This document shows, in pieces, positions 6,975 to 42,840 of a stretch of DNA of 64,000 nt. The stretch comes from Chiloscyllium plagiosum (Eukaryota), in contig NC_057717.1 in NCBI RefSeq assembly GCF_004010195.1, positions 104,941,904-105,005,903 on the forward strand, read 5' to 3'. The position numbers and the translations under genes were made by a program. Numbering within the stretch: the first letter of the stretch is position 1; each line of letters begins with the position of its first letter. Below the pieces are notes generated by a model, which was not told where the DNA came from, searched no databases, and saw nothing but the letters and a program-made list of their open reading frames with translations.

Positions 6975-7182
6975 ATAAAATGAAATTCTATGAGCTGAAA
7001 AAGAAACTCTTGATATTTACTGACATTTTTAATAATATAATACACAATTATTTAAATTAAAGCTGTCCAGAAAAGTAATCAATGCTAATCAAGCATAATT
7101 TCCCATTGAAGCCGAACAAATTCATTCACAGCCATTCGCAGTTCTTTTGGGAGCCAGTAGAGTCATAATGGGTCAAATAGCT

Positions 7183-7368
7183 TAACTCACCTTCAATGCC
7201 ATATCTCCGTATTTTCTGCAGTAGCCTACCATGGGGAACCTTATCAAATGCCTTACTAAAATCCATATATACCACATCTACCGCTTTCCCCTCATCAACC
7301 TCCTTCGTCACCTTTTCAAAGAATTCAATAAGGTTTGTGAGGCACGACCTGCCCTTCACAAAACCATG
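7183..7368 (-). mobile_element. CR1 LINE RT fragment
   Basis: KGRSCLTNLIEFFE...VDVVYMDFSKAFDKVPH. Confidence 0.9.
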
Positions 7369-7504
7369 TTGAGGGATGTATAGTTTTGGTCAGGCGAAAT
7401 GTAGGGTAATGGGTCTGGGTGGGGTGCTCTTCGGAGGGGCAGTGTAGACTTGTTGGGCTGAAGGGCCTGTTTCCACACTGTAGGAATTCTAATTCTAATT
7501 CTAA
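7369..7504 (+). mobile_element. HE1-type SINE, 3' part
   Basis: gggctgaagggcctgtttccacactgtagg followed by an (AATTCT)n tail. Confidence 0.85.
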
Positions 7505-12205: not shown

Positions 12206-13019
12206 AATTTTATGTTTAAAAACCACTATAGATTCTACTTCCATCATTCTTCCTGCTCAGCCGTTCTATGCCCTATCATCTATGAAAATTTTGTTTGCAA
12301 AAGCTTCTAAATGAGTTTTTAAAAAATGAAAAACAATTAAATAATTCCACATTACATGTTAGTATAGGAAGGATTAAACTTAACAGAGCCATCTTTCAAT
12401 TAAGATTGTTGCTATACATTCTACTTTACACACTCAGCCCTTATACCAGTGTAAAATGATCTTAAAGGGGTGCTGACTCTTTCCAGAACATTATTCCATT
12501 TTGCCTTCAACTTGTACATGGAAATCACAGCAAAGCAAAGCCTGGGTTCTCATCGGTAATGTTATCTGTAATTGGCCTATGTATTCATTCATAGAATAAT
12601 TCTCTGTTTACATCTGCAAGGACAGAAACCTATATTTTGTATTTTACATTGTTCTCTTAAAATTATACATACTCTAACTCAAATTATTCACACAAGTATA
12701 AATAATACAAAAGTTCTGCATTTCTTTACACCATAGATGAATTGAAAACTTTATACTAGACACATTTTGAAAAATTAATTTTAGAATAAGCATAGAAAGC
12801 AAAAAATAACCATTTACAATGTTTCTCCAAGACTAAAGTCTCAGGAAAAAGCATTCAATTAAAATTAGGATTAAATTTATTTCCAAAGCAACAAATAAAA
12901 TTACAAAAAATTGAGGTCCAGAGCCAAGACCAAAACTCAGATTCAAATTCAAATTAATTGAAAGATTGAAATAATGTTGTCAGAAATACTTGCTGAAGTC
13001 AAGTCTCCTAGTTACTCAC

Positions 13020-13207
13020 ATCATACAAGAGATCAGTCCAGCCCTCCATGGTGATGCACTGGAATACAGTCAGCACAGCAAACAGGATGTTATCAAATTG
13101 TGTAATTCCATAATTTGGCCCTTCCCAGTATTCAGTGCAGTTCATTCCAACTGGACAGGTTCGAGCAGGAGAGTCTGTCCCACAAGGAGACTCACCCACT
13201 ATTTCAT
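13020..13207 (-). CDS. CACNA1A: Cav2 alpha-1 coding exon (exon 6 equivalent), domain I extracellular loop and pore loop, 188 bp
   Basis: cacttatcag|AT GAA ATA...TAT GAT|gtgagt encodes (N)[62 protein letters not shown], with the TMEGW selectivity filter. YWEGPN, GITQFD, FAVLTV and WTDLLY favour CACNA1A over CACNA1B/E (recalled human sequences). Confidence 0.92.
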
Positions 13208-13429
13208 CTGATAAGTGAACAAGACAATCTAATATTAGCATTTAAATACTGTAGTACTATACTCAAAACAGATTGATTAATTTCATTCAATTAAAGCCAC
13301 ATGGATCATTAAGAGTCATAAATAAAAATGTGCTGTTTCTAATGATATTTCAAAACTCTGTCTCATTCATTTCTCAATATTATTTGAAATCCTGAATCAG
13401 ATTCCAGTCTATAACTAACCTCACAACAT

Positions 13430-14517
13430 TGTCATGCCCAGAGGGACAAAATGAGAGATCCTACACTGGTTTTCTTTAAAACAATATTATTTTGTTTGGA
13501 CATTTATTATATTGATATTTTGTTGGACTGACAACAGATCTGCTACTGATCACATGATGCCAGTTGACTATAATTTCCCAAAACTTCTGATCAGCAGTAA
13601 CCAGGGACAAAGGTTTACATAATTCTCCTGGAGTGTTATACGTATTGCAGCGTACAGACCTTTCAATTAAGAAACTGCAAAGATGTTTACACTCAGCCAG
13701 TTTGAAACAAAGGAAACCATTGAAATATATTACTCATGAGATGATCTGTACCATCATCTCCTTAAATACACAATGTTTTTTAACGAGTGACATCAAAACC
13801 ACCTCATTAACTGACTGCATCAACTGGGAGCCCTAGTCACATGATTGAAGCACTTGGTTTTGAACATGTTTTATTGTACAGTTTTGACATTGCTTTTCCT
13901 TAGTCTTCTTTTAACATCAGAACAGAAAACAGCCAAGCAACTTGGCTTAACTAATGCTTCCTCAAGTCTCAATCTCTCTCAAAAGTCTGATTTGTGGAAA
14001 GGCTCCTGCATTTTGCTTGAAAAGTGAATTATTTCCCCAGTCAGCAAAAACTATATCGCTATTCTTTCAAATGCAAACCACTGCATCCAAGGAATTACAA
14101 AAAGGAATTCTTCCTAACCAGCTGACTACAAACCTTTACTGGATGTTGACTTAAAAATCAAAGATACTGGCACTAATTTACATGTTTTTTAAGTAATGTG
14201 AAATCACATTATTTTCCTTTTCTCTTTTCTTCCTTGTATGCTTGTGTACATGTGTATATGTGTGTATTATGATTTATCTCCCAGGTTGAATGCTTGAATA
14301 AACAACTTTTCTTGTTTTAACCCTAAAGAGAGTTTATTGTAAGACATTTAAACATTTGACTTCACAAGCAGAGCATTTGGGGCAGGTGGGAGTGGTGTAG
14401 TGCAAATGCACCATGGCTTGTTTCGAAAGGGAAAATATAAGAACATAAATTTCAAACTCCTCAGTTATTAAGAGAAGTTTTGAAATTAAAATTCACTTTT
14501 CCCTTTTGTGCATGATA
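13430..14517. mobile_element. Possible solo LTR or TIR element, about 1.1 kb
   Basis: Imperfect inverted ends (tgtcatgcccagaggga versus tcccttttgtgcatgata) and an internal aataaa at about 14297. No TSD seen. Confidence 0.35.
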
Positions 14518-14589
14518 CTGTATGTGGAAAGACAGTGGTATATGGTATTGTCATTAGGCTGGTAATTCTAACCTAAAATCACTGTGCTG

Positions 14590-14800
14590 TCCATTCTTCA
14601 AACAGAACTATCGCGGAGCAGACAATAAGCCTGCTGAGGATAAGATTCGATGCTTGGATTAATCTGATAAAAGCCTTGCAACATAGTCCAAAAAGACTGT
14701 CCTACATAATCCTAATTTGCTGTGCTCTGCATAACTGGAACAGGTGAAGAAGGAATTTGAATGACCATGAAGATCTGGGAGACTGGCAACAGTGATCTGA
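14590..14800 (+). mobile_element. PIF/Harbinger transposase C-terminal remnant
   Basis: Frameshifted AEQTISLLRIRF/RCLD*...LQHSPKRLSYIILICCALHN matches the HARBI1-type C-terminus. Confidence 0.7.
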
Positions 14801-14814
14801 GTAGAAAGGTGATG

Positions 14815-15277
14815 GGGAGGTGGCGGCAATGCTTTAATGTCACTAGACCTTCATTCCTGAAGAAGGGCTTATGCCACAATGATTCTCCTGCTCCTCGGAT
14901 GCTGCCTGGCCTGCTGTGTTTTTCCAGCACCACACTTTTCAACTCTGGTCTCCAGCATCTGCAGTCCTCACTTTCTCCTTCAATCCAGAACGCCAAGCTA
15001 ATGAATTTGAATCTCATCATGGCAAATGGTTAAATTTGAATTCAATTTTTTAAAAATCTGGAATAAAGAACTGGCCTAATGGTAACCGTGAAACTATTGT
15101 CAATGTCACAAAAAGCCATCTGATTCACTAATGTCATTTAGGGATATGTCCTTACCTGATCTGGCCTTCATTTGACTCGAGACCCCAGCAGTACGGTTAA
15201 TGAACCTCTGAGCAATTAGGGAAAGGCAACAAATGCTGGCATAGCCAGAGATACCCACATCCCACGAATTAATAATA
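14815..15277 (+). mobile_element. Second-family tRNA-derived SINE, interrupted by the short PLE insertion
   Basis: taatgtcactagac...aatccaga head and aaatgctggcatagccagagatacccacatcccacgaat tail. Related copies lie at about 4025-4565, 34880-35265 and 58700-59035 (all minus). Confidence 0.7.
14854..14976 (+). mobile_element. Short PLE pseudo-LTR insertion (family A, hammerhead-headed)
   Basis: Starts ttcCTGAAGAagggcttatgcc and ends ctcactttct. TSD ccttca at 14848-14853 and 14977-14982. Confidence 0.85.
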
Positions 15278-15556
15278 GCTATTTATTTTCCTCTTCATTA
15301 TGTTTCCATCTGGCAATGAGCTTTAACATTCAATTGTTTTGTACATAAACCAGTAGAACTCTCAAAATACTTCCACCAATTCATTGTATTCATTACTCAC
15401 TCTGAGTACTGAAAAGGAACACACTACATAATGGCTTTCTGGTCCACCTAACTATCTGTGCACCACAAAATTACTGGAAATAGCTTGAATTACAATATAA
15501 AGCTGATCTTCCCGCAACAACTAATTTCTAACCTACAGCAATAAAGTCTACTCTTT

Positions 15557-15652
15557 TGGGGTGGCACAGTGGCTACTATTGCTGCCTCACAGCACCATGA
15601 ACCCAGGTTCAATTCCATCCTCAGGCAACTGTCTGTGTGGAGTTTGCACATT
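15557..15652 (+). mobile_element. HE1-type SINE, 5' part; the 3' part is at about 16655-16880
   Basis: Ends at gtttgcacatt. The continuation ttctctccatgcctgcgt follows the CR1 tail. Confidence 0.8.
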
Positions 15653-16654
15653 GGCAAATTAGCAGGCAGTAGGGTGCCACTGGGATCGGTGCTGGGACCC
15701 CAGCTAGTCATAATATATCTCATGGTTTGATGATGGAACAAAATGTAACATCTTAAAGTGTGCAGATGACACCAAGTTGGGTGGGAGGGTGAACTGTGAT
15801 GAGGATACAGAGATCCTCCGACATGATCTGGACAGGTTGGGTGAGTGCGCAAATCATTGGTAGATGCAGTATAATTTGGATAAATCTGAGGTTATTCACT
15901 TTGGAAGCAAAGACAAGAAGACAGATTACTACCTGAATGGCTGTAAATTGGGAGAGGGAGTGTGCAGTGGGACCTGGGTGTCCTTGTGCACCAGTCACTG
16001 AAGGTATTTATTCAGGTGCAGCAAGCAGTAAAGAAGACAAATGGTATGTTGGCCTTCACTGTGAGAGGTTTTGAGTACAGGAACAGGGCTGTGTTGTCAC
16101 AGTTATGCAGGACCTTGGTGAGGCCACACCTAGAATATTGTGTGCAGTTTGGTCTCCTTTGCTGAGAAAGGATGCTCTTGCTCTTGATGGAGTGCAGCAA
16201 CAGTTTACCAGGCTGATTCTGGGAATGGCAGGGCTGACATATGAGGAGAAATTGGCTAGGTTAGCATTGTTTTCGCTGGAGTTCAGATGAATGTGGGGGA
16301 CTCTCATAGAGACTTATAAAATTCTAACAGGACTAGATGGGGTAGATGCAGGGAGGATGTTCTCAATGGTGGATGTGTCCAGAACCTGGGCTCACAGTCT
16401 GAGGATTCGGGGTAGACCATTTAAGATGGAGATGAGACATTTCTCCACCCAGAGTGATGAGCCTGTGGAATTCGTTTCCACAGGAAGTAGGTGATGCCAA
16501 AACACTGAATGTACTCAAAAGGCACTTGGGGTGAATAGGGTCAAAGTTAGAGGGAGAAAGCAGGATTAGGCTATTGAGTTGGATGATCATGATGAATGGC
16601 AGAGCAGGCTCAAAGGACCGAATGGCCACCTCTTGCTCCTATCTCCTATGTATC
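15653..16654 (+). mobile_element. CR1 LINE 3' portion inserted in a SINE
   Basis: GVPLGSVLGP, ADDTKLG and RPHLEYCVQF motifs plus 3' UTR. Confidence 0.9.
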
Positions 16655-16880
16655 TCTTCTCTCCATGCCTGCGTAGGTTTCTTCCTACAGTCCAGTGTGG
16701 GGTGGGTGGACTGGCTATACTAAATTGCCCAAAGTGTTCAGGTATGTGCAGGCTAGGTGGATTAGCCATGGGAAATGCAGGGCTAAGGCAGCAGGGTGGT
16801 CTGAGAGAGATGCTCTTCACAGAGTCGGTGTGGACCCAATAGCAGAATGGCCTGCTTCCACACTAAAGGTTTTATGATTT
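16655..16880 (+). mobile_element. HE1-type SINE, 3' part
   Basis: taaattgccc...gaatggcctgcttccacact tail. Confidence 0.75.
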
Positions 16881-18046
16881 TGCTTGTTGATATAAAACAG
16901 CACTTAAGAGACCTGTCCAGTTATTAAAGAGGGGCAGGAATAATCCCTAGGTTTGAGGGGCAAAAGATTAATTCTTCCAGTATAGTAAACACACTTGTGA
17001 TTGCATATACCTCACTTCAGCACTGAGCTCAAACTACTAAAGTTATTGGAAGTTGACTAAATTAGTATTAACAAATTCATTTATTATTTTCTCCCATCTT
17101 TTTCTGACCTTCACTTTTAGATGTGCTGATATTTTGCTGAATACAAGCTGTTGGACACCTACAGCACTCTAGCACCTAACTCAGACATCAAATGTCATGC
17201 TTGAGGTCTGACAATGAATATAGGTAAAATACTTCAATTTGGGTCATTGCCAAATCTAATCCAAATGTTGTCCACACATATGCATGCATCAACAAGCATC
17301 AGTATTAAATAACAAACTCCAGTTCCACTGGGAGGTTCAAACTTATAATGAACACATTGCAGGGATTGGAGACTAGAATTTGGATGGAATCTATATTGAA
17401 TATCAGAAACCTGAGAGTAAATGTTGACTGGAATCTGAGTAAAAGGTTTCAGATGATATACATATGGAATAAAGAATATCTAGGAGCAATTTATGGGCGA
17501 GAATCTAAATGTGCCTTCTCAGTTATTTATAAACTATTGAATCACTTAGAAGGTGCTACACATAGAATCTAATCAACAAATTCAATAACTGTCAACTGAA
17601 CAAAAGGTCCAATGTAAATAGGGAAAAGCAGTGATGTAATGGCAAGTTAGAAAACATGTTGAAGGCCAATTTGATACCCTTAAATTAATTAATCTTCAGG
17701 CACAAGATACTGTTCAAATAAAAAAATGTTTTAGACTGAACTGCAGTTCTATAGGTTGTTAAAACAGATTACGAGAGAAGGTGCTGCAATTATGTTTGCT
17801 TAGTTTTCCCAAGCAGGTTGCTGGCCTTACTTGCTTTCTTCGTATTCTACATTATCTGCATGAGTTATAGTGTAAGCTTGGTGTAAGATGTTAGGCATGG
17901 GGGAGAAGAATTATTTAACCATTCACTTAATCCTATCTATTTGTTTTAGATGTATAAAACACAATATATCAGGGTTTCCAAGAAAGAAAAGAATTACAGA
18001 ACTGGATTAGTCCACCTCTAAAATTATTGCATCCCACTTAAAGTTT

Positions 18047-18418
18047 GGCATGTTGGCTCAGTGATTAGCACTGTTACCTCACAGCACCAGGGACCCGGGT
18101 TCAATTCCACCCTTGGGAGACTGTCTGTATGGCGTTTGCATGTTCTCCCCATGTCTGTGTAGGTTTCCACTGGGCGCTCCGTTTTCCTCCCATAGTTCAA
18201 AGATGTGTAAGTTAGGTGAATTCTAGTGCATGTCTCTGTTTGGCTTGTCCTAGGATAGATGTGTTAAGGGATGTGCAGACTAGATGGGTTAGCCATGGGA
18301 TATGCAGGGTTACAGGAATAGGTTAGGAGATAAGTCTGGATGGGATGCTCTACAGAGGGTCAGGGTGGACCAGTTGGGCTAAATGGTCTGTTTCTACACT
18401 GTAGGATTCTATGATTCT
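18047..18418 (+). mobile_element. HE1-type SINE, older subfamily
   Basis: A and B boxes, V-domain and gattctatgattct tail. Confidence 0.85.
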
Positions 18419-18765
18419 TACTAACCATTACACTTAACAACCAAAAGAACTGCAAATGCTGTAAATCAAAAACAAAAACAGAAGTTGCTGGAAAAGCTCA
18501 GCAGGTCTGGCAGCATCTATAAAGAGAAATCAAAATGAACATTTCAGATCCATCCTCGGAACTGATGCCAGCTAGAAAAATGTTGGTTTATATGCAGAAG
18601 ATAGGGTGGGATGAGGGGCAAAGAGTAAACGATAGGCCAAAGAGAGAGAACAATAGTTGGACAGACAAAGAAGTTGCTAACAATTTGGCTGGGACGTAAA
18701 TAGCTGTTAATGGAGACTGTTAGTGGCTAACAATAGATAGCGTGTAATGGCAGACTATATGATAA

Positions 18766-18939
18766 AAAGCACAGCCGGTCAAGCAGCATCTGAGGAGCAG
18801 GAGTGTCAACATTCTGAGCGTGTGCTCCTGATGAAGAGCTCAAAACATTCACTCTTCTGCTCCTCAGATGCAGCATGACCAGTTGTGCTTTTCCAGCACC
18901 ACACTTTCCGTCTCCAGTATCTGCAGACCTCACTTTTTC
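18766..18939 (+). mobile_element. Fold-back short PLE pseudo-LTR insertion (family A)
   Basis: Inverted arms around ctgatga (18828-18834). TSD ctatatgataa (18755-18765) and ctatgtgataa (18940-18950). Confidence 0.8.
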
Positions 18940-19100
18940 CTATGTGATAACAAGACCTGGTGTGTGTGGTAGGGGGCTAGGACATAGGGGAGTTCAGGCC
19001 CTAAAATCATTGAACTCGATATTGAATCTGGAAGGTGCTGGAGTCATCAAGTGAAAACTTAGGTGTTATTCTTCCAGCTTGCACTGAGCTTCGCTGGAAC

Positions 19101-19458
19101 GGCACGGTGGCCCAGTGGGCAGCACGGTGGCCCAGTGGGCGGCACGGTGGCACAGTGGTTAGCACTGTTGCCTCACAGCGCCAGAGACCCGGGTTCAATT
19201 CCCGCCTCAGGCGACTGACTGTGTGGAGTTTGCACGTTCTCCCCGTGTCTGCGTGGGTTTCCTCCGGGTGCTCCGGTTTCCTCCCACAGTCCAAAGATGT
19301 GCAGGGCCAGGTGAATTGGCCATACTAAATTGCCCGTAGTGTTAGGTAAGGGGTAAATGTAGGGGTATGGGTGGGTTTCGCTTCGGCAGGTCGGTGTCGA
19401 CTTGTTGGGCCGAAGGGCCTGTTTCCACACTGTAATGTAATCTAATCTAAAAAAAAAC
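19101..19458 (+). mobile_element. Full-length young HE1-type V-SINE with a triplicated 20-bp head
   Basis: Complete A box, B box, V-domain and TCTAA/poly-A tail; inserted in the PLE. Confidence 0.93.
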
Positions 19459-21090
19459 ACTTCAGCAAACCTGGGACAGAGATGTTGGTCAGGGAACAGG
19501 GTGGTGTGTTAAAACGGCAAGCAACTGGAAGCTCAGGGTCTTTTTGTAGGTAGAACATAATTGTTCAGTGAAGCAGTCACCCAGTCTACGCTTTGTTTCC
19601 CCAATATGGAGAAGAGCACATTGTGAGCAGTGGATGCAGTAGAGTAAATTGTGAAAAGTGCAGGTAAAGTGCTGCTTCACCTGGAAGATAGTTTGGGCCC
19701 TTGGATACTGAGGGAAAGAGGAGGTCAATGGGCAGGTATTCTATCTTTGGTGATTGCAGGGGAAGGTGCCATAGGGCTGTGGGGCAGTGTTGGACATTTT
19801 TGAAGAGTAAACAGGGTGTCCCAAGGGAACAGACCCTGTGGAACACAGACGAGGGAGGGGAGGGGATTATGTTCTGGTGGTGGCATCTCACTAGAGGTGG
19901 TAGAAATGGTGGCTGATGATCTTCTGGATATGGGTGCTGGTGGGATGGTACGTAAGGGCAAGTGGAACCCTATCACTGTTGTGGGAAGGGAGAGAGGAGG
20001 TGAGGACGGAAGTGCGGGAGATGGATCAGACCTGGTTGAGAGCCCTGTCAACAATGTTGCAGGGGAATCATTGGTCGAGGAAGAAGGTGGACATTTCGGA
20101 GGATCCCTTGTCGAAGTTGACCTTCTCAGAACATATGCAATGGAGACAGAGGAACTAGGAGAATCAAATAGACTCTTTACAGGAAACAGGGTGCAAGGAT
20201 ATATTGTCAAGATAGCTGAGGGAGTCAGTGGGTTTAAAATGGATATTAGTGCCCTGCCTATCTCCAGAAATGGAAAGAGAGATGTCGAAGAAGGGAAGAG
20301 TGGAGTCAGAGATAGACCAGATGAAAGCAAGGGTGGGATGGAAACTAGAAGAGAGAACGATGAACCTTTCCAACTCCAGATGAAAAAGGGAAGCAGCATC
20401 GATGTCAGATGAAGAATTGTGTGTGGAGGCCAGACTCGGGCTGGAACAAGGAATGTTCCACATACCCCACAAAGAGACAGGCATAACTGGGGCCAAAGCA
20501 AGTACCTGGCCACCCCTCTGACCTGAAGTCATTTAAGTTGTTTCAGTTCCTCTCCTAAAGTATGGAGTCTTGTGGAGATGCAAGCTATATACACTGGCAA
20601 ACCTCGATGATTCCATAAAGGTAGCCTATGTAAGTCTAGACAGGATTCATGTGGTCAGCTATCTCTTAGGGCTCTTGTGGCTAAACTAGTTCCTGTCCTT
20701 ATTCTAAACTGGCCAATGTTCCAGCAAAGATCACCAAGTACTCTTTGCAGACAAAAGCAGCTGATTTTATTCCCTTCTGTGACAAATGAATACTTTGTAG
20801 CATTAGTATGGATTCTTACCTTGCCTACTGAGATGAATAAACCAAGAAACAAAACATGCATTTCTACTATTTATGGCTCAGTATCACATTAGCTGTTCAT
20901 TTAATTCTCATTAGCACTCTTCAAATCAACATATTAGAAAATGCAAATAACAGAACATGAGAATATGACTGTAATTTAATCCTCGGTTAATCTGATGAAA
21001 ACTTGTCCTTTATTCTTACGACAAATGTCTAGAACAAACTGCAGCATCATCCAAACTTCCACACACAAACTTTCAGATGCAAAAACGTAC

Positions 21091-21240
21091 TGTTGCTATC
21101 AAAGCACGCTTTATGAAATTTTCCCATGTAAAATTCTAATCCAATGATTGCAAACATGAGAATGGCGAAGAAAAGTAGCAATCCAATCTGAAGCAGGGGG
21201 ATCATTGCCTTCATGATGGACTTGAGTACAACTTGTAAAC
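21091..21240 (-). CDS. CACNA1A: Cav2 alpha-1 coding exon (exon 5 equivalent), IS4-S5 linker and IS5, 150 bp
   Basis: tacatttcag|GT TTA CAA...AGC AAC A|gtacgt encodes [50 protein letters not shown]. Phase matches both neighbouring exons. Confidence 0.93.
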
Positions 21241-21593
21241 CTGAAATGTAAAGTAATACCAATCAGATCAGACTTTTTGTAAATCATCCCTAACAGATAG
21301 CTTACATCTTCCATTTTATACATTTTACATGATAGTTCTACTCACTAAGATATGGCATATCACTTTCTGCACGTGAGCAGGTAAAAGCATCCAATTTACT
21401 AAACACTAGAAAGCCATCAGAATTTCACTATTAGGAATTTCAAAATGGCAGTCACCTAAAGTTGACAAGGTCCATCTTTACACACTTTATGTCAAATTCC
21501 AATAACATTACTGGGATCCAACCTAAATTTAAAAGGTGAAAAAAATCTATGCTTTCATTTTGCAATGTTTATTTGCTCTTCTGAACTCTAATC

Positions 21594-21640
21594 TATTGTA
21601 TTCACTTCTCTTATCATGGATAAGAGAAGTGAATACAATA
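21594..21640. repeat. Perfect 22-bp inverted repeat with a 3-nt loop in intron 4
   Basis: tattgtattcacttctcttatc-atg-gataagagaagtgaatacaata; the arms are exact reverse complements. Confidence 0.95.
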
Positions 21641-21941
21641 CCCTGTTTCCTGAACATCAGATGCAAAATGGGCAAAGCATAAATTGGCATTAAGCTTGAC
21701 TGGAAAGTATTGAAAAGCAAATTTCCAGATCATTTTCTGCCTGTTTGAACTTAAAATTTGGAACTTCTAGCAGCTTTAAGAATCAGAGATTTGACATATT
21801 ATATTCACTAAAGTAAGGCTCAAGGCCACATTCCACCAATTTGTAATTAATCACGTTAGAATAGAAGGATCAAATGTACCATAGAATTATTCTTGGAATC
21901 CTTATCTTAAAAACATATCCTAACGCAGATGTAATACCTAC

Positions 21942-22033
21942 TTGGAATTCCAGAAACCAACTTCAAGGGTCGAAGGACTCGAACTGCACGTAATGTTCGA
22001 AGATCGAATTCTGCCCCTGTTGTAGCAACAATA
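21942..22033 (-). CDS. CACNA1A: Cav2 calcium channel alpha-1 coding exon (human exon 4 equivalent), domain I S3 end and S4 voltage sensor, 92 bp
   Basis: Minus strand ttttcttttccag|T ATT GTT GCT...ATT CCA A|gtaggt encodes (G)[30 protein letters not shown](S), the Cav2 IS4 motif. Phase 2 to phase 1. Not in the ORF track. Confidence 0.93.
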
Positions 22034-22914
22034 CTGGAAAAGAAAATATATGACATGTTTTATTTATACACAACTACATATGTGAGTTGTAGCTCCACAC
22101 TGCACTGTACATATACGTCAAGATTCATGTTGGCTACAGGACACAAGAAGGAAATTTTTTCCTGCATGATATAAATGCTGGGCTGGTTGCATCTCAGCAA
22201 AAAGCTTCTTCCCAATTTCTTCATCTCATTTAAAAGCACAAACTCATGCTAGGTTACAGTTCCTCAAGTAAGCAAGAACACTTCTCATATGACAGTGTGT
22301 TTGTTTTTTTTCTGGAGTAATGGAATAAGTGGAAAGACATCACATTCAAATTAATGCAATTGTAGAATGATGATAGCCTAGGCAGAAGCCATTCAACCCA
22401 TGGTGTCTATGTTAGATCTCTGTAAGATTAATTCAACTCATTCCCCCTCCCACACATTTCTCCCACAGCCTTACAAATTATTTCTCTAAGAGTACTTAAC
22501 CAATTCCCTTATCAAAGCCAAAATTTTATTTGCCTTCACCACCATGTCAAGTATTACCTTCCTGATCCAATCTATTTGCCATATACAAAGATTTTCCTTC
22601 CACCATTGTTTGTTTCTTTGCCAAAAACCTTGATCCTGATCCTCTTATTCCATCCATTGAAGGGACCAATTTTCTCTCTATTCACTCTGTTTAGATCATG
22701 ATTTTGAAAGCTTCCACCAAATCGCCACTGAATATCCACTTTTCTAAGGAGGACAATCCCAGATTCATGTGACTAAATCTGAATATTTAATTACTGGAAC
22801 CATTCTTCAAAATCTTTTCCAAGCCCTTGCTACAGCCCTCAGTGTTCCTAAATTGCAGCGCCCAGAATTGGACAGAATGGGCTGAATCTTATATTTTCCT
22901 GGCTAAGTGCTGGT

Positions 22915-25669: not shown

Positions 25670-25846
25670 GTGCATGGGTATGTTCACCGAGGTGTGAATT
25701 TGATTTGCAGATGTTTCATCCCTTTTCTAGGTGACATCCTCAGTGCTGTTGAGCCTCCTGTGAAGCGCTGCTGTACAGTTTCAGTTGAAACATACCCACA
25801 ACAACTGCAATCGGCACCCAAACTACAAATCTTTACACAAACCTTG
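25670..25846. mobile_element. PLE (Poseidon-type) pseudo-LTR fragment with partial inversion, inside the CR1
   Basis: Foreign block in the CR1 RT region. gggtatgttc and aacataccc occur in opposite orientations; contains a hammerhead-like core. Confidence 0.65.
25707..25746 (-). ncRNA. Degenerate minimal hammerhead ribozyme motif, family C
   Basis: Minus strand gca-CTGAGGA-tgtcacctagaaaagggat-GAAAC-ATC-tgc, with stem I gca/tgc. Confidence 0.6.
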
Positions 25847-27880: not shown

Positions 27881-29636
27881 GCTTACTTTTGAACTATTCA
27901 TTATAAACTAAAGACTAGAAAGCAGAATTATTCACATTTATTAATTGGTTTGTTGTCCTGTGCTGATAAAGGTAGTTACTTCACAGAGTTACGTAAAGCT
28001 CTTACGTTATCAGTTTAAAGTGAAAATTACTTCTCTGTTTCAAGGCATTTGCCCATTAATTAATATTTGAATTTTATTGATTTTGTTTTATTTATTACAA
28101 ATTGAAGTCTTGTTCATTTTTTCTCTTGAATTGTTTGGGAATGACGTATTTATTTTTTAAGTTATTTGTTTTTGAAGTTTCTACAGTTAACCAGGTTGGC
28201 TTCTTTATTGATTGTTACAAGACAGAGGCATGAACACAGAAGTTTGGAAATGGATTTGGAGAAGGGACCAAAATCAGTGACTTCAGTTTTTCTAACACAT
28301 AATCAACATAATAGCATGCGCAACATTTTAGACTTTCACATAATGAAATCAGTTTAAAGAGAAAGCATTGAACATTTTTGTTGTTTGGAAAAAAGCTGCA
28401 TAGCAATTTAATCTCAATGTGTTAAAGGCCAAGCAACATTTGAATATATTTTAAAGTTGTGACAATGCTGTGGCTTTAAGAGGTTACAGAACATAGAACA
28501 TAACAGTGCAGTACAGGCCCTTCGGCCCTTGATGTTGCTCCAACTTGTGAAACCAATTTGAAGCTCATCTAACCTACACTATTCCATTTTCATCTATATG
28601 TCTATCCAAAGAACATTTAAATGCCCTTAAAGTTGGTGAGTCTCTACTGTTGCAGGCAGCAGTTTCCACACCCCTACTACTCTCTGAGTAAAGAAACTAA
28701 CTCTGACATCTGTCCTATATCTATCATCCCTTAATTTAAAGCTATATCCCCTCATGCAAGCCATCACCAACTGAGGAAAAAGGCTCTCACTGTCCACCCT
28801 ATCTAACCCTCTGATTATCTTTTATGTCTCAATTAAGTCACCTCTCAATCTTCTTCTCTCCAATGAAAACAGCCTCAAGTCTCTCAGCCTTTCCTCTAAA
28901 ACCTTCCCTCCATACCAGGCAACATCCTAGTAAATCTCCTCTAATTCCTTTCCAAAGCTTCCACATCCTTCCTATAATGCAGTGACCAGAACTGTACACA
29001 ATATTCTAAATGTGGCCGCACCAGAGTTTTGTACAGCTGCAGCTTGACGTCATGGTTCTGAAACTCAATCCCTTTACCAATAAAAGCTAACACACTGTAT
29101 GCCTTCTTAACAACCTTATCAACCTGGATGGCAAATTTCAAGGATCTATGTACCTGGACACTGAGATATCTCTGCTCATCTACACTACCAAGAATCTTAC
29201 CATTAGCCCAGTACTCTGCATTCCTGTTACTCCTTCCAAAGTAAATTACCTCACACTTTTCCACATTAAACTCCATTTGCGTCCTCTCAGCCCAGCTCTG
29301 CAGCTTATCTGTGTCTCTCTGTAACCTACAACATCCTTCATCACTATCCACAACGCTACCGACCTTAGTGTCATCCGCAAATTTACTAATCTATCCTTCT
29401 ATGCCCTCATCCAGGTAATTTATAAAGTTGACAAACAACAGTGGACCCAAAACAGATCCTTGCGGTACACCACTGGTAACTGTACTCCAGGATGAATATT
29501 TACCATCAACCACCACCCTCTGTCCTCTTTCAGCTAGCCAATTTCTGATCCAAGCCACTAAATCATGCTCAATCCCATGCCTCCATATTTTGCGCAATAG
29601 CCTACCATGGGGAACATTATCAAACACCTTACTGAA

Positions 29637-30760
29637 TTACCTCGACACGGTCCTGTCCCCATTAGTCCAAGAACTCCCCACCTACGTTCGTGACACCACC
29701 CACGCCCTCCACCTCCTCCAGGATTTCCGCTTCCCCGGTCCCCAACGCCTCATCTTCACCATGGACATCCAGTCCCTGTACACCTCCATCCCCCATCACA
29801 AAGGACTCAAAGCACTCCGCTTCTTCCTTTCCCGCCGTACCACCCAGTACCCTTCCACCGACACCCTCCTTCGACTGACCGAACTGGTCCTCACCCTGAA
29901 CAACTTTTCTTTCCAATCCTCCCACTTTCTCCAAACAAAAGGAGTAGCCATGGGCACCCGCATGGGCACCAGCTATGCCTGCCTCTTCGTAGGGTATGTG
30001 GAACAATCCATCTTCCGCAACTACACTGGCCCCACCCCCCATCGTTTCCTCCGCTACATTGATGACTGTATCGGCCCTACCTCGTGCTCCCACGAGGAGG
30101 TTGAACAGCTCATCCACTACACTAACACCTTCCACCCCGACCTCAAATCCACCTGGACAGTCTCGGACTCCTCCCTCCCCTTCCTAGACCTTTCCGTTTC
30201 TATCTCAGGCGACCGAATCAACACGGACATCTACTACAAACCTACCGACTCCCACAGCTACCTGGACTACACCTCCTCCCATCCTGCCCCCTGTAAAAAC
30301 GCCATCCCATTCTCCCAATTCCTCCGTCTCCGCCGCATCTGCTCCCAGGAGGACCAGTTCAAAATACGTACAACACAGATGGCCTCCTTCTTCAAGGACC
30401 GCAATTTCCCCCCCGACATGGTCGACGGTGCCCTCCACCGCATCTCCTCCACTTCCCGCTCCTCCGCCCTTGAGCCCCGCCCCTCCAACCGCCACCAGGA
30501 CAGAACCCCACTGGTCCTCACCTACCACCCCACCAATCTCCATGTACAGCGCATCATCCGCCGTCACTTCCGCCACCTCCAAACAGACCCCAGCACCAAG
30601 GATATATTTCCCTCCCCACCCCTACTCTCTGCTCATTCCTGAGGAAGGGCCTTGCCCGAAACGTCGAATCTCCTGTTCCCTGGATGCTGCCTGACCTGCT
30701 GTGCTGTTCCAGCAATAAAGTTTCAACTTTGATCTCCAGCATCTGCAGACCTCACTTTCT
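29637..30760 (+). mobile_element. Young Penelope-like element (Neptune-like): open RT/thumb ORF joined directly to the pseudo-LTR
   Basis: FTMDIQSLYTSIPH, GVAMGTRMGTSYACLF, FLRYIDDC and YYKPTDSHSYL with no stops. 10-bp TSD ccttactgaa at 29627-29636 and 30761-30770. Confidence 0.95.
30635..30669 (+). ncRNA. Minimal type I hammerhead ribozyme (PLE type, family A) with an intact core
   Basis: attc-CTGAGGA-a-GGGC-ctt-GCCC-GAAAC-GTC-gaat. Stem I attc/gaat, stem II GGGC/GCCC, palindromic ACGT in place of a looped stem III, GUC cleavage triplet. Confidence 0.8.
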
Positions 30761-31499
30761 CCTTACTGAAATCCACACACACCACATCAACCACTTTACC
30801 CTCAGCCACCTATTTGGTCACCTTTTCAAAGAACTCAATAAGGTTTGTGAGGCATGATCTACCCTTCACAAAACCATGTTGTCTATCCCTAATCAAATTA
30901 TTCCTCTCCAGATGATTTTAAATCCTATCTCTTATAGCCCTTTCCAACACTTTACCCACAACCAAAGTAACGCTCACTGGTCTATAATTTCCAGGGTTAT
31001 CTCTACTCGCCTTCTTGAAAAAGGGAACAACATTTGCTATCCTCCAGTCTTCTGGCACTATTTCTGCAGACAATGATGACATAAAGATCAAAGCCAAAGG
31101 CTGGGCAATCTAGCTTCCCAGAGAATCCTAGGATAAATCCCACCTGGCCCTGGGGACTTATCTATTTTTATACTTGCCAGAATTGCTAACACCTCCGCCT
31201 TGTGAACCTCAATCCCATCAGGTCTATTAGCCTGTATCTCAGTATTCTCCTAGACCACATTGTCTTTATCTAATGTGAATACGAATGAAAAGTATTCATT
31301 TAGCGCTTCCCCATCTCCTCTGCCTCCACACACAACTTCTCACTATGATCCTTGATTGACCCTAATCTTACTCTAGTCATTCTTTTATTCCTGATATACC
31401 TACAGAAAGCCTTAGGGTTTTCCTTGATCCTATCTGCCAATGACTTCTTATGTCAAATGGGCTTGTTTCCACACTGTAGGGATTCTCTTCTAAAAACGT

Positions 31500-31810: not shown

Positions 31811-32797
31811 GTACAGGACTGTAGAACTGTTCAAGTAGCAAGGAATCAGGCTGTGCTTTTATCTGCTCACAACATCACTATTCTTAAAGGCTCATGCCAA
31901 CCATCGCCAATTAATTGACATCAGCCTTTGGTAGACCATCATGTGTCACATATAGTAGTGTTTCTACTTGGTATAATTCTGGAAGCTTCATCATTGTTAG
32001 AGAAAAGATTAGGGTATCCATACAGATTGCCTATTTCAGCAATAAAGATATTTACTCCAACCAAGAATTTACTCCATCCTTAAACCAGCCAATGTCGTGG
32101 TTAGTGAACAGACTAGAGAAGACACCTTTAACCTCTTTTCAAAGCTATATGCTGATGAGTTTGAAAAGGCTCAGAGAAGGCAGTTTGTTTCTACTTTCAC
32201 CAATTACAACACAACTTTCAGAGTTGTGATGATAAAGATGATGATAAAATTGAGAATTGTGAGCTGGTGAGCCACAAGATTGTGACTAAAGGTCACCATC
32301 TAGCAAAGATTCATAACCATCAGATCCCAAACCATCACTGGGAGGACATCTTGGACTACCTGCAGTTGTCTTCAGAGGCAGATACCAGCCAACAGCTGTT
32401 TTGTCCATATGCCTCTCCCATAGTCCTTGTGAGAGAGAAAGATAGAAAACTAAGGATCTGTGTCAATAATCAGACACTCATGCAAAGATTTATAAGGATA
32501 CTTAATATCTTCCTAAGATTGAGGAAGCACTGCTAGTTCTCAAAGGTGCAAAATATTTCTGCAATCTCAGTTTGGTTCATAATTATAAGCACAATCCATC
32601 ACTAAACAAGGTATTGAATATATGATATTCTGAACAGGCACTGAAGGGCTTTACAAATACATAAGAACACCTTTGGGCTCTGGAGTGTCCCTGCTACCCT
32701 CATGCATGAGATGGCTAAAGCTTTTGGTGATTTAATTTCTAGTCCCTCCTTGAGTACCAGGATGACATACTCACTTTCAGCTTGACATTTGAGGAGA

Positions 32798-33292
32798 CCC
32801 CTGCAAGACCATCTTATCCTGTTTGGGCCTCCTCCACCGCCACTCCCTCACCACCCAACACTTGGAGGAAGAACACCTCATCTTCCACCTCGGAACACTT
32901 CGACCCCAGGGCATCAATGTGGACTTCACCAGTTTTCTCATTTCCTCTCACCCCACCTTACCCCAGTTCCAACCTTCCAGCTCAGCACCATCCTCATGAC
33001 CTGTCCTACCTCTCAATCTTCCTTCCCACTTATCCACTCCACCTCCTCTCTGACCTATCACCTTCATTCCCACCTCCATCCACCTATTGTCCTCTTGGCT
33101 ACCTTCTCCACAGCCCCACACCCCTCCCATTTATCTCTCCACCCTGGAGGCTCCGTCTTCATTCCTGATGAAGGGCTTTTTCCCGAAATGTCGATTTTCC
33201 TGCTCCTCAGATGCTGCCTGACCTGCTATGCTTTTCCAGCACTATTCTAATCTAGACTCTAATCTCCAGCATCTGCAGTCCTCACTTTTGCC
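32798..33292 (+). mobile_element. PLE 3' fragment (endonuclease C-terminus and pseudo-LTR, family A)
   Basis: LGLLHRHSLTT.HLEEEHLIFHLGTLRPQGINVDF, pyrimidine-rich UTR, hammerhead core and ctcacttttgcc end. Confidence 0.88.
33161..33196 (+). ncRNA. Near-intact minimal hammerhead motif, family A
   Basis: attc-CTGATGA-a-gggcttttt-ccc-GAAAT-GTC-gatt. One core C>T change and stem mismatches relative to the 30635 copy. Confidence 0.65.
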
Positions 33293-34879
33293 TTTTGCAG
33301 TTTAACTTATGTTTGACTTAAGAATCAAATCAGAGAAGTGCCAACTTTTCAAGATGATGAGAAAATCCCAGAGATAGATGACTGGCCCAACCGGAGATGG
33401 TTCCTTGGTCCAGTTGGTTGCTATAGGAGGTTTGTGCAAGGCTATGCACAGTTGGACACCATCTCACAATTTGCTATGCTTATCTCAGAATGTAGAAGGA
33501 ATGATTGGGAAAGGATTATGAGCGTGCTACGTGACTGAACATTATTGGGCACTGGATTATCCCTATGTGATGACACCTTTTGCACCTTCAAAAGCAGAAG
33601 CTTATCTCATCATTTGCCCTTGGCATCCAGATTTCCAACTCCTTTTCATATTGATGCTGTCAAAAGTTCAAGGGCAAAAAAAGAGCCGTTATCATTTATT
33701 CCAGTCGGAGTCTCAAGTTGAATGAGAGGAACAAGGAGAATGATCCCAGTATGAAACTCAAACTGTTAGCTTTGAGGTGGGCTGTTTCCTAGAACTTCAG
33801 AGACCTGACTAGTGCAAGCTTTGACATATTTAAAGTTAAATGTTCACCAATCTTGGTGTAAGAAAGGCTCAATGAACAGGCACAGTTTCAATTCTAAATC
33901 TGGTACAGGTCAAACAAAAGTAATGCAAATGCTGACACACTTTGCCACTTATTTCAAAAAAAGATATCAGGTAGTTTCAGCTTCAGCTGATTAATGTGGG
34001 CATCATTACTGGGTGGCTCAACATCCACCAACTCAGTGCTAGTGTTTCAATGGAATCTGAAGAATCATAGTCGAGTAGAGTCAGTTAGTAATACAGAATT
34101 CTGAATTTTCTGTCTGTTGTGATTCCACAGGGAGCATCTAGTGTGGGGACCACCCACCCTGAAAAATGGTGCAGTTGTCCTGCAAGAAAGCAGAAACAGA
34201 AGCAACAAGTGTCATTGATCAAACAACTTCTGGAGACCTGACAAATCTAAAGTTCAACATGCATGATCTGCCACAGAGACTGGATTCCTTGGAAGGTACC
34301 AGAACAGTGAAGCAGTTGAGAAGAAGGTCTTCTCCAGAAAATGCTGGATCCTACCACAACCCTTATTATTTGCCCATATCAGTGGTGCAGATAAGATTGC
34401 TATCACTAAAGTGGGCCACCAACATACCATTCTGGTATCACATATGCAACCTCAAATGTGTAAAACATGCATTTTGATAGAATCGACATTGACCATTGAT
34501 TTGAAATAGTTATTCTGTATCTTTCACAGAAGCTGCCTGACCAACTGTGTATTTCCGAATTTTTGTTCTTATTTCAAATGTCAGGATCCATCATGTTTTG
34601 CAAACTGTTTGTCAAGGAGAGCTCATTTCAGTGCATACGAATGACAGGATAGAAAATGTTAATAGTTTTAACAAACACAAAACATTTCCCCTTATGACAG
34701 AATCCCCTCCCACTACTGCTCTCAGTGTTTTTTATGATATCAGGCTATTGCTTGACTAGTCTGTGGAACAGCTTTCCCAGTTTTGACACAAGCCCCAAGA
34801 AGGTTGGTGATAACACGTCCCAGGGTCATCAGCGCTGTTATGATTGTTGTTTTGTAGACGTTTCATACAAATGAGTGAC

Positions 34880-39660: not shown

Positions 39661-41009
39661 GAATACTGTTAGTGCTTCCACACAAGCTATCCATCTGCGA
39701 GCTGCCAGAAAGCCAACTTACTTCTAGATTTAAGAGAGATTCAGGATCAAGGCAAAAGACACATCAAGGGAAATCAGGACTAGAGGGTAATGGAATCAAA
39801 AATTAGCAAATAATATGTGGGTAATTTTTCACAAACCATTCCAATGTTTTGCAATTAGTGATTCTGTACCTCAGGGCATTAAGTACACAGGTGTGGAAGG
39901 CAAATTCATCCCCTAAAGTCCCAAAATTGCAGTGGAAACATCAATAATGGATGAACGCTCAGAAAAGCTGTTCCCTTGTGAAATAATGCCACAGAGGCCT
40001 ATATCTCATCACCAATTCACCCTTCATTTACATGTGGAGTATCCTTGACACTGATTCAGCTCGATCAGAGCCAGAATGCCTGCTTACGTCTGTCAGCCAG
40101 GGCTCCCCATTTGGAGTGGATTAACAGCCCCGATCAGGGAACTCATATTCTATGGGGTCAACCTGGCTGACCTCATTACAATCACTACATCTCTCACTCT
40201 CTTAGTCCAAGGACATAGGCCAGCTCTTTTTTTTGTAGCTCCGCATGGGGCATTTTAGCACCAGGTCAGGTTCCTGATACGGTAGAATGTAACGCACAGT
40301 AGCTCATTTCTTGCGCCCAGAAGGTTCCGGGCAAAATGCATTGTCCTCTTCAGGTGGCAACATCCACCATGTATATCTCAGATTCCAAGATACTTTCAAT
40401 GCTTGATGGAGAGGGAGAACCCACAGGTTCTGGAACAGTCCGAAAGGAGTTGAGGAGCCGGGTATGTTTTCTTCCATATCATTTGTGATTTTGCAGCTTT
40501 CATATGGTCCACATGCTTGTTCAAGACCATTGGACCTATCTGAACTTTATACATCACTGGAGACCTTACCTCGCGACGAACATCCCTCTTACCCAAACAG
40601 GGCCATTCCAGCAATTCCTACACCACACATCATCCCCTGAAGTAAATTGTCACTCTCGCTTAGCAGAATCTTTTCTTCGGCATTGGCATTCTTGATGCCA
40701 TTTCACACTCTTCCCCAAGGTCTGGAAAGATTTGATTTAACCTGGTGCAGAATCTTCTCCCCATTAGCAACTCTATTGGAGTTATTCCTGTAGTTGCTTG
40801 AGGGATCATTCTATAATCAAACAGGAACCAGGACAGTTTGTTTTCTAGTGAAGCTGTAGACTGTTTCTTTAAGCCTGCCTTCAAAGTTTGGACTGCTTTT
40901 TCTGCCAGACCATTGGGTGATGGATGGTACGGAGCTGTCCTTATATGACAAACACTTTATATAACTTTGGGAAATATGCAAATTCCCTGCTGGTAAACAA
41001 TGGCCTGTA

Positions 41010-42840
41010 TGAAAAGGGGTAATCTGCCATGGGTATCTAAGGAAATAAGGGAGGCTATCAAATTGAAAGAGAAGGCGTATAAAGTGGCCAAAAACAGCAT
41101 GAAACAAGAAGACTGGGAAAACCTTAGTGATCAACAGAAAGCCACAAAAAGAGCTTTGAAGGAAAGTAAGAAGGTACATGAGAAAAAACTAGCACAGAAT
41201 ATAAAGACAGATAGCAAACGTTTCTATAAATATATAAAACAAAAAAGAGTGGCTAAAGTAAACATTGGTTCCTTAGAGGATGAGAAGGGGCATTTACCTT
41301 ATGATGAAATGGCCGAGGCATTGAACAGGTATTTTGTATCGGTCTTCACAGTGGAGGACACGAATAACATGCCAGTAATTGACAAAGAGACGAAGGCAGG
41401 TGAGGACCTGGAAACAATCATAATTATGGAAGAGGTAGTGTTGGGCAAGCTAATGGAGCTATGGATAGACAAATCTTCTGGCCCTAACGGAATGCATCCT
41501 CGGGCACTAAAAGAGATGGCAGGAGAAATAGCAAGTGCACTGGTGGTAATTTTCCAAAATTTGCTGGACTCTGGGGCAGTTCCAGCAGATTGGAAAACAG
41601 CAAGTGTGACCTCACTATTTAAAAAGGGAGGTGGGCAAAAGATGGGGAATTATAGACCGGTTAGCTTAACGTCTGCAGTGGGGAAGATGCTTGAGTCTAT
41701 TATCAAGGAAGAAATAGCAAGGAATCTTGATAGAAACTATCCTGTTGGGCAGACGCAGCATGGGTTCACGAAGGGCAGGTCGTGCTTAACAAATCTTTTG
41801 AAAGTCTATGAAGACATTATGAGCAAGGTGAACAACGGGGACCCAGTGGATGTGGTGTACCTAGATTTCCAAAAGGCCTTCGCATAAGAGGCTGCTGCAT
41901 AAGATAAGGATGCAAGGCATGACAGGTAAAGAATTAGTATGGATAGAGGATTGGTTGACTAACAGGAAGCAAAGAGTGAGGATAAATGAGCGCTATTCTG
42001 GCTGGCAATCAGTAACTAGCGATGTGCCTCAGGGATTGGTGTTGGGACCACAATTATTCACAATTTATAAAGATGATTTGGAATTGGGGACCACGTGTAG
42101 TATGTCAATGTTTACAGATGACACTATGATGAGTCGCAGAACAAAGTGTGCGGAGGACTCTGAAACTTTGTAAAGGAACATGGAAAATATGACTGAGTGG
42201 GCAAAGATCTGGCAGATGGAGTACAATGTTAATAAATGTGAAGTCATCCATTTTGGTTGGAGTAACATTAAAAAGCATTATTACTTGAATGGTAAAAGGT
42301 TGCAGCATGCTGCTATGCAGAGGGACCTGGGTGTCCTTGTGCATGAATTACAGAAGGTTGGTCTGCAATCAGGTTATGTTGCAGCTGTACAAGGGCTGGT
42401 GAGGCCACACCTGGAGTACTGTGTGCAGCTTTGGTCTCCTTACTTGAGAAAGAATGTACTGGTACTGGAAGGGGTGCAGAGGAGGTTCACTAGGTTAATT
42501 CCAGAGTTGAGGAGGTTGGCTTATGAGGAGAGACTGATTGATTGGGATTATATTCATTGGAATTTAGAAGAATGAGGGGGGATCTTATAAAAACATATAA
42601 AATTATGAAGGGAATAGACAAGAAAGAAGTAGAGAAGATATTTTCACTGGAAGGTGGAATTAGGGCAAGAGGGCATAGCTTCAAGATTAGAGGGAGCAGA
42701 TTTAGGACTAACTTGAGAAGGAACTTCTTCACCCAGGGGGTTGTAAATCTATGGAATTCCTTGCTCAGTGAAGTGGTTGAGGCATCCTCAGTAAATATTT
42801 TTAAAGCTAAGACAGATTTCTTTTGAACAATAAAGGAATT
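41010..42840 (+). mobile_element. CR1 LINE ORF2 inserted in the Gypsy integrase region; 3' tail missing
   Basis: ORF 41000-41887 (NYRPVSLTS, QHGFTKGRSCLTNL, YLDFQKAF) and downstream frames. Confidence 0.92.

Follow-up and report, generated by a model that had tools for sequence, protein, structure and literature searches.

A minimal hammerhead motif in the tail of a Penelope-like element copy at a calcium-channel locus of Chiloscyllium plagiosum

The Hammerhead Motif and Its Carrier

The stretch analyzed here (the window) comprised 64,000 nucleotides (nt) of the Chiloscyllium plagiosum genome (contig NC_057717.1, positions 104,941,904–105,005,903, forward strand), including 677 N. At 30635–30669 of the plus strand it contained a minimal type I hammerhead ribozyme motif, which was part of the last ~140 nt of a Penelope-like element (PLE), and the minus strand carried exons matching a Cav2-type calcium-channel alpha-1 subunit (Table 1). 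Read directly, the motif was attc-CUGAGGA-A-GGGC(cuu)GCCC-GAAA-C-GUC-gaat. The conserved hammerhead core was complete (C3 U4 G5 A6 N7 G8 A9, G12 A13 A14, A15.1-U16.1, and H17), the G10.1-C11.1 pair was G30647-C30657, and the palindromic positions 15.2/16.2 were C30662/G30663. Helix III was represented by a 4-nt palindrome only, which requires a second copy to pair. Both CpGs of the motif were intact. The sequence-only reading had described a motif with all core nucleotides, perfect helices I and II, an extra A and a loopless palindromic ACGU, and every one of these details was read in the letters.

The loose pattern CTGANGA..GAAA..TH had 25 matches in the window vs. 12.4 expected, a number that 5 of 100 shuffles reached, and thus the loose pattern alone was not significant. 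A strict descriptor (helix I ≥4 bp, helix II ≥4 bp, 0–1 extra nt, GAAA, pairable 15.2/16.2, U, and H) had its sole site in the window at 30635–30669, and any match to it occurred in 1 of 300 dinucleotide-preserving shuffles. The Infernal check against Rfam, which had been proposed on the basis of the sequence, gave no gathering-threshold match in the window and, for 30500–30800, no match to a hammerhead family even at E ≤ 10. At the same threshold, the Rfam hammerhead models were also silent on four related loci, which included master copies of the family and two other hammerhead classes, both described below. Since these were equally missed, the check was uninformative and does not count against the motif; the Rfam models are blind to the helix-III-less hammerhead architecture.

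The reverse transcriptase (RT) frame of the PLE copy was open for 334 codons (29638–30639). It broke off after ...IFPSPPL at a deletion, and its stop codon was the TGA within the hammerhead CUGA box. Another copy in the same genome (L069) was used as the reference. The window copy matched positions 1501–2487 of L069 at 98.4% identity and then jumped to 3180–3320 at 97.2%, which means that 692 nt covering the endonuclease were missing from it. The lost part comprised the GIY-YIG domain and most of the 3′ untranslated region (UTR), and the junction shared one nucleotide. L069 had an open frame of 684 aa ending at 3036, its hammerhead started at 3195, and its tail and the element ended at 3319. 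The order in the more complete copies was accordingly RT, GIY-YIG, stop codon, ~160 nt, hammerhead, ~97 nt, and 3′ end. A protein search with the L069 frame returned 2,825 proteins at E ≤ 1e-10, with E down to 1e-281; many of the 120 matches listed had a precomputed PF00078 and some had PF01541. Among these, the closest named proteins came from Chiloscyllium punctatum (83, 80, and 73% identity), Mobula hypostoma (72%), and Rhincodon typus (70%).

By its sequence, the carrier is a broken PLE copy, 5′-truncated, internally deleted and without the endonuclease. The intact target-site duplication (TSD), the two CpGs kept in the motif and the 97–99% identity to other copies point to a young insertion. 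The earlier assignment to a young PLE was therefore borne out, as the RT frame was 98.4% identical to a copy that continued into GIY-YIG. A pair of pseudo-long terminal repeats (pseudo-LTRs) was not found: the insertion began inside the RT frame at 29637, no upstream tail copy was present at the locus, and the motif was located in the 3′ tail of the truncated copy. The copies at L062 and L071 had their own, different internal deletions that fused the reading frame to the 3′ UTR. Internal deletions seem common in this PLE family.

Table 1. Features of the window, parts of the hammerhead motif and loci of related hammerhead classes.
Feature	Position	Strand	Details
Minimal type I hammerhead motif	30635..30669	+	Direct sequence reading and strict descriptor
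Helix I, 5′ strand attc/AUUC	30635-38	+	4 bp; pairs with GAAU 30666-69
Core box C3-A9, CTGAGGA	30639-45	+	N7 = G at 30643
Unpaired A between A9 and G10.1	30646	+
Helix II hairpin, GGGC/GCCC	30647-50 with 30654-57	+	4 bp; 3-nt loop CUU 30651-53
Core box G12-A14	30658-60	+
A15.1-C15.2-G16.2-U16.1, loopless palindrome ACGU	30661-64	+
C17	30665	+	Predicted cut between 30665 and 30666
PLE copy, 1,126 bp	29637-30762	+	8-bp TSD on both sides; interrupts a long interspersed element (LINE) RT frame
Left TSD, TTACTGAA	29629..29636	.	Identical to 30763-30770
Right TSD, TTACTGAA	30763..30770	.	Direct reading
PLE RT frame, 5′-truncated	29637..30623	+	Open reading frame (ORF) list, RVT_1, alignment to L069
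PLE 3′ tail, end of 3′ UTR	30624..30762	+	Hammerhead followed by ~97 conserved nt that end in ...CACTTTCTCC
Cav2-type alpha-1 calcium-channel subunit, three exons covering S4 to the pore loop of domain I	13011..22059	-	Ion_trans matches; coordinates are those of the open frames around the exons
Exon frame	21910-22059	-	Cav2.1 59.6 bits, Cav2.2 56.5 bits
Exon frame	21050-21262	-	Cav2.1 85.1 bits, Cav2.2 100.7 bits
Exon frame	13011-13241	-	Cav2.1 133.1 bits, Cav2.2 119.0 bits
Older LINE RT remnant interrupted by the PLE	28941..31109	-	ORFs 28941-29390, 29391-29636, 30918-31109
Second, older PLE 3′ end	32793..33295	+	Endonuclease C-terminus (...LEEEHLIFHLGTLRPQGINVDF), 3′ UTR, decayed hammerhead and tail, contiguous
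Decayed class 2 hammerhead	25702-25751	-
Decayed hammerhead-tail remnant	~14.85 kb	+	Tail similarity
Decayed hammerhead-tail remnants	18.81 kb (-) with 18.85 kb (+)		Tail similarity
Decayed hammerhead-tail remnant	~35.41 kb	-	Tail similarity
Decayed hammerhead-tail remnant	~61.76 kb	+	Tail similarity
Other mobile-element remnants	40663-43719, 54227-55351, 7129-7389, 49883-50083	-
Loci of the two further hammerhead classes	L034:103-147, L041:902-946	-
Loci of the two further hammerhead classes	L045:1493-1542, L062:1420-1469	+

Abundance of the Hammerhead Family in the Genome

The genome assembly searched comprised 101,977 contigs with 3.56 Gb in total. In a DNA search with 30560–30760, the best 40 of 2,800 first-look candidates were scored, which gave 45 matches at 97–100% identity (most at 99%), all confined to 30624–30760 of the window. 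In the search with the RT frame, the best 120 of 100,393 first-look candidates showed 81–100% amino acid identity, and many of them had long open frames. The core pattern CTGANGA-N10-24-GAAACGTC occurred 69,199 times on the plus strand and 68,922 times on the minus strand, 138,121 matches in total, vs. 491 (235 and 256) for the reversed control, which represented an enrichment of about 280-fold. When YR was allowed at 15.2/16.2 (GAAAYRTC), there were 208,596 matches vs. 1,383 in the control. The densities were ~39 per Mb for the core pattern and ~59 per Mb for the YR version. The two totals indicated that about two thirds of the box-intact motifs kept the CpG of ACGU.

At 28 of the 29 best-matching loci the hammerhead had the loop CUGU and was otherwise identical to the window motif; the exception, L002, had the loop CUU with N7 = A. 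The exact 35-mer of the window occurred once in the genome, as itself, and the master 36-mer with the loop CUGU had 255 genomic copies. The same master loop, with the extra G, was present in 45 of the 51 RNA reads over the motif in the run described below. These numbers indicated that the 1-nt deletion in loop II was private to the window copy.

Tandem (L013 and L028) and inverted arrangements existed elsewhere in the genome. At L013 (1212–1640) the end of a tail directly abutted another unit, and at L028 (1255–1640) two hammerhead tails of the same orientation were 236 nt apart. Such tandems are the kind of context where a dimeric hammerhead could form. Inverted, head-to-head arrangements accounted for 18 of the first 100 listed young-master motifs (255 in total), that is, nine pairs, e.g., C1:24171854–24171923. 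The 5′ ends in these nine pairs overlapped by 2 nt or lay up to 23 nt apart, and three further pairs were 0.3–1 kb apart. The inverted pairs suggest a recurrent 5′ end or a template switch just upstream of the hammerhead. Two candidate unit boundaries were rejected: a 344-bp "unit" with a fixed 5′ end was an artefact of N-masked stretches in L006, L008, L023, and L025, and the boundary of a 245-bp unit was a subfamily breakpoint instead of an element end. Contig sets labelled with several organisms held 18–58% of the words sampled from 30400–30800 of the window; near-identical copies of the element may exist in more than one species, or the labels may cover close relatives.

Three Hammerhead Classes and the Constraint on the Fold

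Three hammerhead classes co-existed in the genome, and they shared the same core boxes, one unpaired nucleotide after A9 and a palindromic 15.2/16.2. Class 1, which includes the window motif, had an unpaired A, the helix II GGGC/GCCC and ACGU. Class 2 had an unpaired U, ACGU and a helix II of 6–7 bp (GUYACCU/AGGKRAY) whose sequence was unrelated to that of class 1. Class 3 had an unpaired A, the helix II GGAGC/GCUCC, AGCU and the cleavage triplet CUA. The boxes were constant, and N7 (G/A/U) and loop II (CUGU, UUAU, UUUU, UCAU, UAAU, AUGU) varied freely. Single genomic copies decay neutrally, and hence the comparison between lineages is the informative one.

Covariation was analyzed in an alignment of 39 distinct motifs, the rows of which were picked by a pattern that demands the boxes. 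Changes on both sides were found in all four pairs of helix I. There were 18 cells changed on both sides vs. 7.3 ± 1.9 in shuffles, and none of 500 shuffles reached the observed score, although most of this signal came from the 7 class 2/3 rows and related rows inflate such tests. The covariation score was 0.316 vs. at most 0.096 for partners slid by 1–3 columns; two class 3 rows were misaligned by one column on the 3′ side. The G10.1-C/U11.1 pairing was present in 92% of the rows. In older class 1 subfamilies, GAUU opposite AUUC left a U-U mismatch, and in the young subfamily GAAU gave a perfect 4-bp helix I. Across genomic copies, the core was thus conserved in all three classes and helix I covaried.

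Host Gene and Surroundings

The bit scores of matches to solved structures, summed over the three channel exons, were 277.8 for Cav2.1 and 276.2 for Cav2.2, and the exons split 2:1. The host gene is a Cav2-type alpha-1 subunit, either CACNA1A or CACNA1B; the earlier label CACNA1A was supported as far as the Cav2 type. Relative to the gene, the hammerhead was antisense and lay 8.6 kb upstream of the exon frame matching human Cav2.1 residues about 219–258. No upstream exon was found in the window, as there was no Ion_trans match among 146 minus-strand frames of ≥45 aa at 31.3–64 kb, and none among 263 frames of 28–44 aa at 22–64 kb. Since the first ~218 residues must be encoded by exons still further upstream, we infer that the hammerhead site is intronic. 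The exon frames were on the minus strand and the motif was on the plus strand, in agreement with the antisense position noted before. The host pre-mRNA holds only the complement of the motif and so cannot be cut by it, as had also been anticipated.

The older LINE remnant interrupted by the PLE had RVT_1 matches of 48.8 and 21.1 bits, and its frame read ...VDFSK on the right flank. In the second, older PLE 3′ end, the C-terminal frame of the endonuclease (32793–32999, plus strand) was recognized by its likeness to the end of the L069 frame, and no Pfam family matched this 68-aa frame at E ≤ 0.1. Its decayed hammerhead at 33165–33192 (plus strand; the site is given to 33199) had the helix II GGG/CCC, the loop CUUUUU, and AUGU replacing ACGU. 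At least seven further decayed hammerhead remnants were present in the window, none of which passed the strict descriptor. Their typical damage was CpG decay (ACGU to ACAU/AUGU; CCCG to CCUG/CCCA), and one head-to-head inverted pair occurred among them. The other mobile-element remnants gave integrase and RNase H matches (an LTR retrotransposon), further LINE RT frames and an ALKBH8_N-type match.

Comparison with Known Hammerhead Systems

The minimal hammerhead ribozymes (min-HHRs) of metazoan PLEs have the same architecture as the window motif (Cervera and De la Pena, 2014; PMC4209133). Their hallmarks are a nucleotide between 9 and 10.1, G10.1-C11.1 and a palindromic 15.2-16.2, and all three were present here, which supported the earlier classification as a minimal type I hammerhead of the PLE kind. 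Further shared features were the type I fold without a helix III loop, a helix I of 4–5 bp without a defined loop 1, the location in a PLE terminal repeat or tail, and thousands of copies that are mostly solitary with some close opposite-strand pairs (PMC4209133). Helix II had 4 bp in the window motif vs. 7–8 bp in the Schistosoma min-HHR families, and class 2 here had 6–7 bp. The copy number was far above the ~4,000 of coelacanth and the ~9,000 of Xenopus, which were counted with another descriptor, and the host lineage (carpet-shark relatives) was not named in the available text of PMC4209133. Dimers and trimers of min-HHRs cleaved weakly, and cleavage of single motifs was not detectable (PMC4209133).

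The hammerhead of the Poseidon-clade element PAc of Anolis carolinensis cleaves only with the protein of the element (Frangieh et al., 2024; PMC11167929). The C3G and G8C mutants of PAc abolished cleavage, and the double mutant partly restored it. PAc and the family studied here share a PLE-borne hammerhead with only helix I, helix II and loop II, a frame with RT and GIY-YIG, and a conserved 3′ "tail". However, the ORF of PAc begins within its hammerhead, where helix II starts, whereas here ~160 nt separated the stop codon from the motif and another ~97 nt followed it up to the 3′ end. Protein-assisted cleavage was shown for PAc.

Non-LTR retrozymes and amphibian satellite hammerheads resemble the window motif in being of type I with a weak helix III, in working better as dimers, in their link to PLE terminal sequences, and in their absence from birds and mammals (PMC7229834; bioRxiv 10.64898/2026.07.22.740005). 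Retrozymes are presented as PLE derivatives and were present in the one Chondrichthyes species of that study (bioRxiv 10.64898/2026.07.22.740005). They form tandem arrays of 150–450-bp units that give circular RNAs, in contrast to the window copy, which is a lone, dispersed insertion linked to an RT frame. Tandem repetition was not found at the locus, where the nearest plus-strand copy was 2.5 kb away and decayed. Canonical retrozyme hammerheads also have a helix III hairpin and loop-loop contacts, unlike the window motif. The canonical type I hammerhead of Rfam shares CUGANGA, GAAA, the GUC triplet, and helices I and II, and it differs in its helix III hairpin and in the lack of the extra A after A9. 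In the much larger axolotl genome, 126,247 type I hammerheads have been reported (PMC7229834), a total similar to the 138,121 core-pattern matches counted here. The matches listed in a literature search for hammerhead ribozymes with sharks included no shark hammerhead paper, and those for Penelope transposable elements in sharks included no ribozyme paper.

Function and Rival Explanations

We consider it highly probable that the motif is a genuine helix-III-less type I hammerhead, belonging to the tail of a recently active PLE family, and that the window copy is an inert passenger. Since the motif lies within the last ~140 nt, every insertion that copies that much carries it. The window copy would have been inserted by target-primed reverse transcription into a LINE within the Cav2 gene, on the antisense strand, and it would have arrived in its defective state (5′-truncated, with the internal loss of 692 nt) or acquired it later. 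In the parent element, transcripts with two motifs, from tandem or read-through units, would supply partner copies. The palindromic ACGU of the two copies would pair to form helix III and thus a double hammerhead, which would cut after GUC, probably helped by the element's own protein. Such cuts would release unit-length retrotransposon RNA, which might be an intermediate on the way to templates that are circular or longer than one unit. From the analogy with the known systems we infer that the ribozyme processes retrotransposon RNA, for which a second copy and probably a protein are required.

Several observations weigh against this explanation. The Pfam support for the carrier was just short of the curated thresholds: RVT_1 scored 27.2 bits (E = 3.9e-6) in the window frame, below the cut-off of 29.6, and in L069 the scores were 27.7 bits (E about 3e-6) for RVT_1 and 21.3 bits for GIY-YIG (cut-off 22.6). 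Helix I was weaker in older subfamilies, and its pair 6-45 was unpaired in 21 of the 39 aligned rows. The minimum free energy (MFE) of the monomer was -8.7 kcal/mol vs. -7.1 for the hammerhead fold, 1.6 kcal/mol higher, and the double hammerhead had -13.1 kcal/mol vs. an MFE of -28.2 for the dimer; nearest-neighbour folding ignores tertiary contacts and is uninformative for a motif that depends on these or on a protein. The RNA data came from one poly(A) single-cell run (X20), with 825 reads placed from about 2 in 100 of the run; two further raw-read runs (X21 and X19) contributed no reads. Family RNA was present in both orientations and reads spanned the GUC site, where molecule ends did not accumulate (30665/30666). 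The latter is weak evidence and not specific to the locus; nearly all reads came from other copies (a fraction of 0.96 continued unlike the window) and fragments without poly(A) would be lost. Efficient cleavage was thus not visible in this type of library. In the literature, PLE insertion in vitro did not depend on hammerhead cleavage and RNA-seq of Anolis showed no ends at the hammerhead site (PMC11167929), and 8 of 9 dimer elements of Xenopus gave no cleavage product (bioRxiv 10.64898/2026.07.22.740005).

Some of the same observations are compatible with an unlikely alternative: that the motif is kept for a non-catalytic reason, as a folded 3′ region bound by the PLE protein to start reverse transcription, with cleavage marginal or vestigial and the window copy inert. 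In every subfamily seen, the hammerhead directly adjoined tail blocks of strong conservation (GATGCTGCCTGACCTGCTG ... CTCCAGCATCTGCAG), and these blocks paired with each other in the MFE fold of 30600–30762. The missing read-end pile-up also fits, as do published PLE hammerheads, whose activity is low or protein-dependent and in which catalytic mutations leave insertion in vitro unchanged (PMC4209133; PMC11167929). However, the invariant positions were exactly the catalytic boxes, in three classes with helices that differ in sequence and length, and C3-A9, G12-A14 and an H17 placed after a palindromic helix III would be superfluous in a hairpin that only binds protein. The Anolis mutants C3G and G8C, with their partial rescue when combined, also speak for catalysis (PMC11167929).

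It is very improbable that the window copy itself is a working ribozyme on plus-strand transcripts, whether as a monomer or paired with the older copy at 33165, 2.5 kb downstream. Its core nucleotides and both helices are all intact, its ACGU can pair with the AUGU of that older copy through one G-U wobble, and family RNA existed in both orientations among the RNA reads. Yet helix II of the older partner is degraded (GGG/CCC with a 6-nt loop), and the match between its helix I strands and those of the window copy is poor. There was also no sign of plus-strand transcription at the locus, the hammerhead fold was not the predicted MFE structure, and the loop II deletion was absent from the 255 master copies and from most of the reads over the motif. 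A lone monomer with a private deletion, taken together with the inactivity of published single motifs (PMC4209133), makes it unlikely that the window copy is still catalytically competent, as the sequence-only reading had proposed. Most likely, this lone and slightly mutated monomer does nothing. A chance resemblance without hammerhead ancestry deserves practically no credence. The loose core pattern was not enriched in the window and the Rfam models were silent, but the genome-wide counts, the rarity of strict-descriptor matches in shuffles and the covarying helices refute it, and the fixed position in the PLE tail and the published architecture (PMC4209133) point the same way.

Significance

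The locus itself matters little: the retrotransposon fragment, antisense to a channel gene, is defective and shows no sign of serving the host. This kind of motif has been known since 2014, and only the family-level numbers are notable, i.e., ~1.4 × 10^5 core-intact motifs, 255 identical youngest copies and many open RT-endonuclease frames in a vertebrate genome of 3.56 Gb. It would be a bold and quite doubtful claim that hammerheads are denser in this genome than in any other seen so far (at least 138,121 motifs with an intact core, ~39 per Mb, the axolotl genome being ~tenfold larger), having been spread by a PLE that may still be active and whose youngest subfamily gained a perfect 4-bp helix I. 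Standard Rfam scans miss the whole class of helix-III-less motifs. If the motifs cleave in vivo with the protein of the element, sense or paired intronic copies could cut host pre-mRNAs genome-wide, and the frequent head-to-head inverted pairs would indicate that the RNA has a defined 5′ end immediately before the ribozyme. The genome is a good natural system for the question of whether PLE hammerheads cleave in vivo, as dimers or with the help of a protein.

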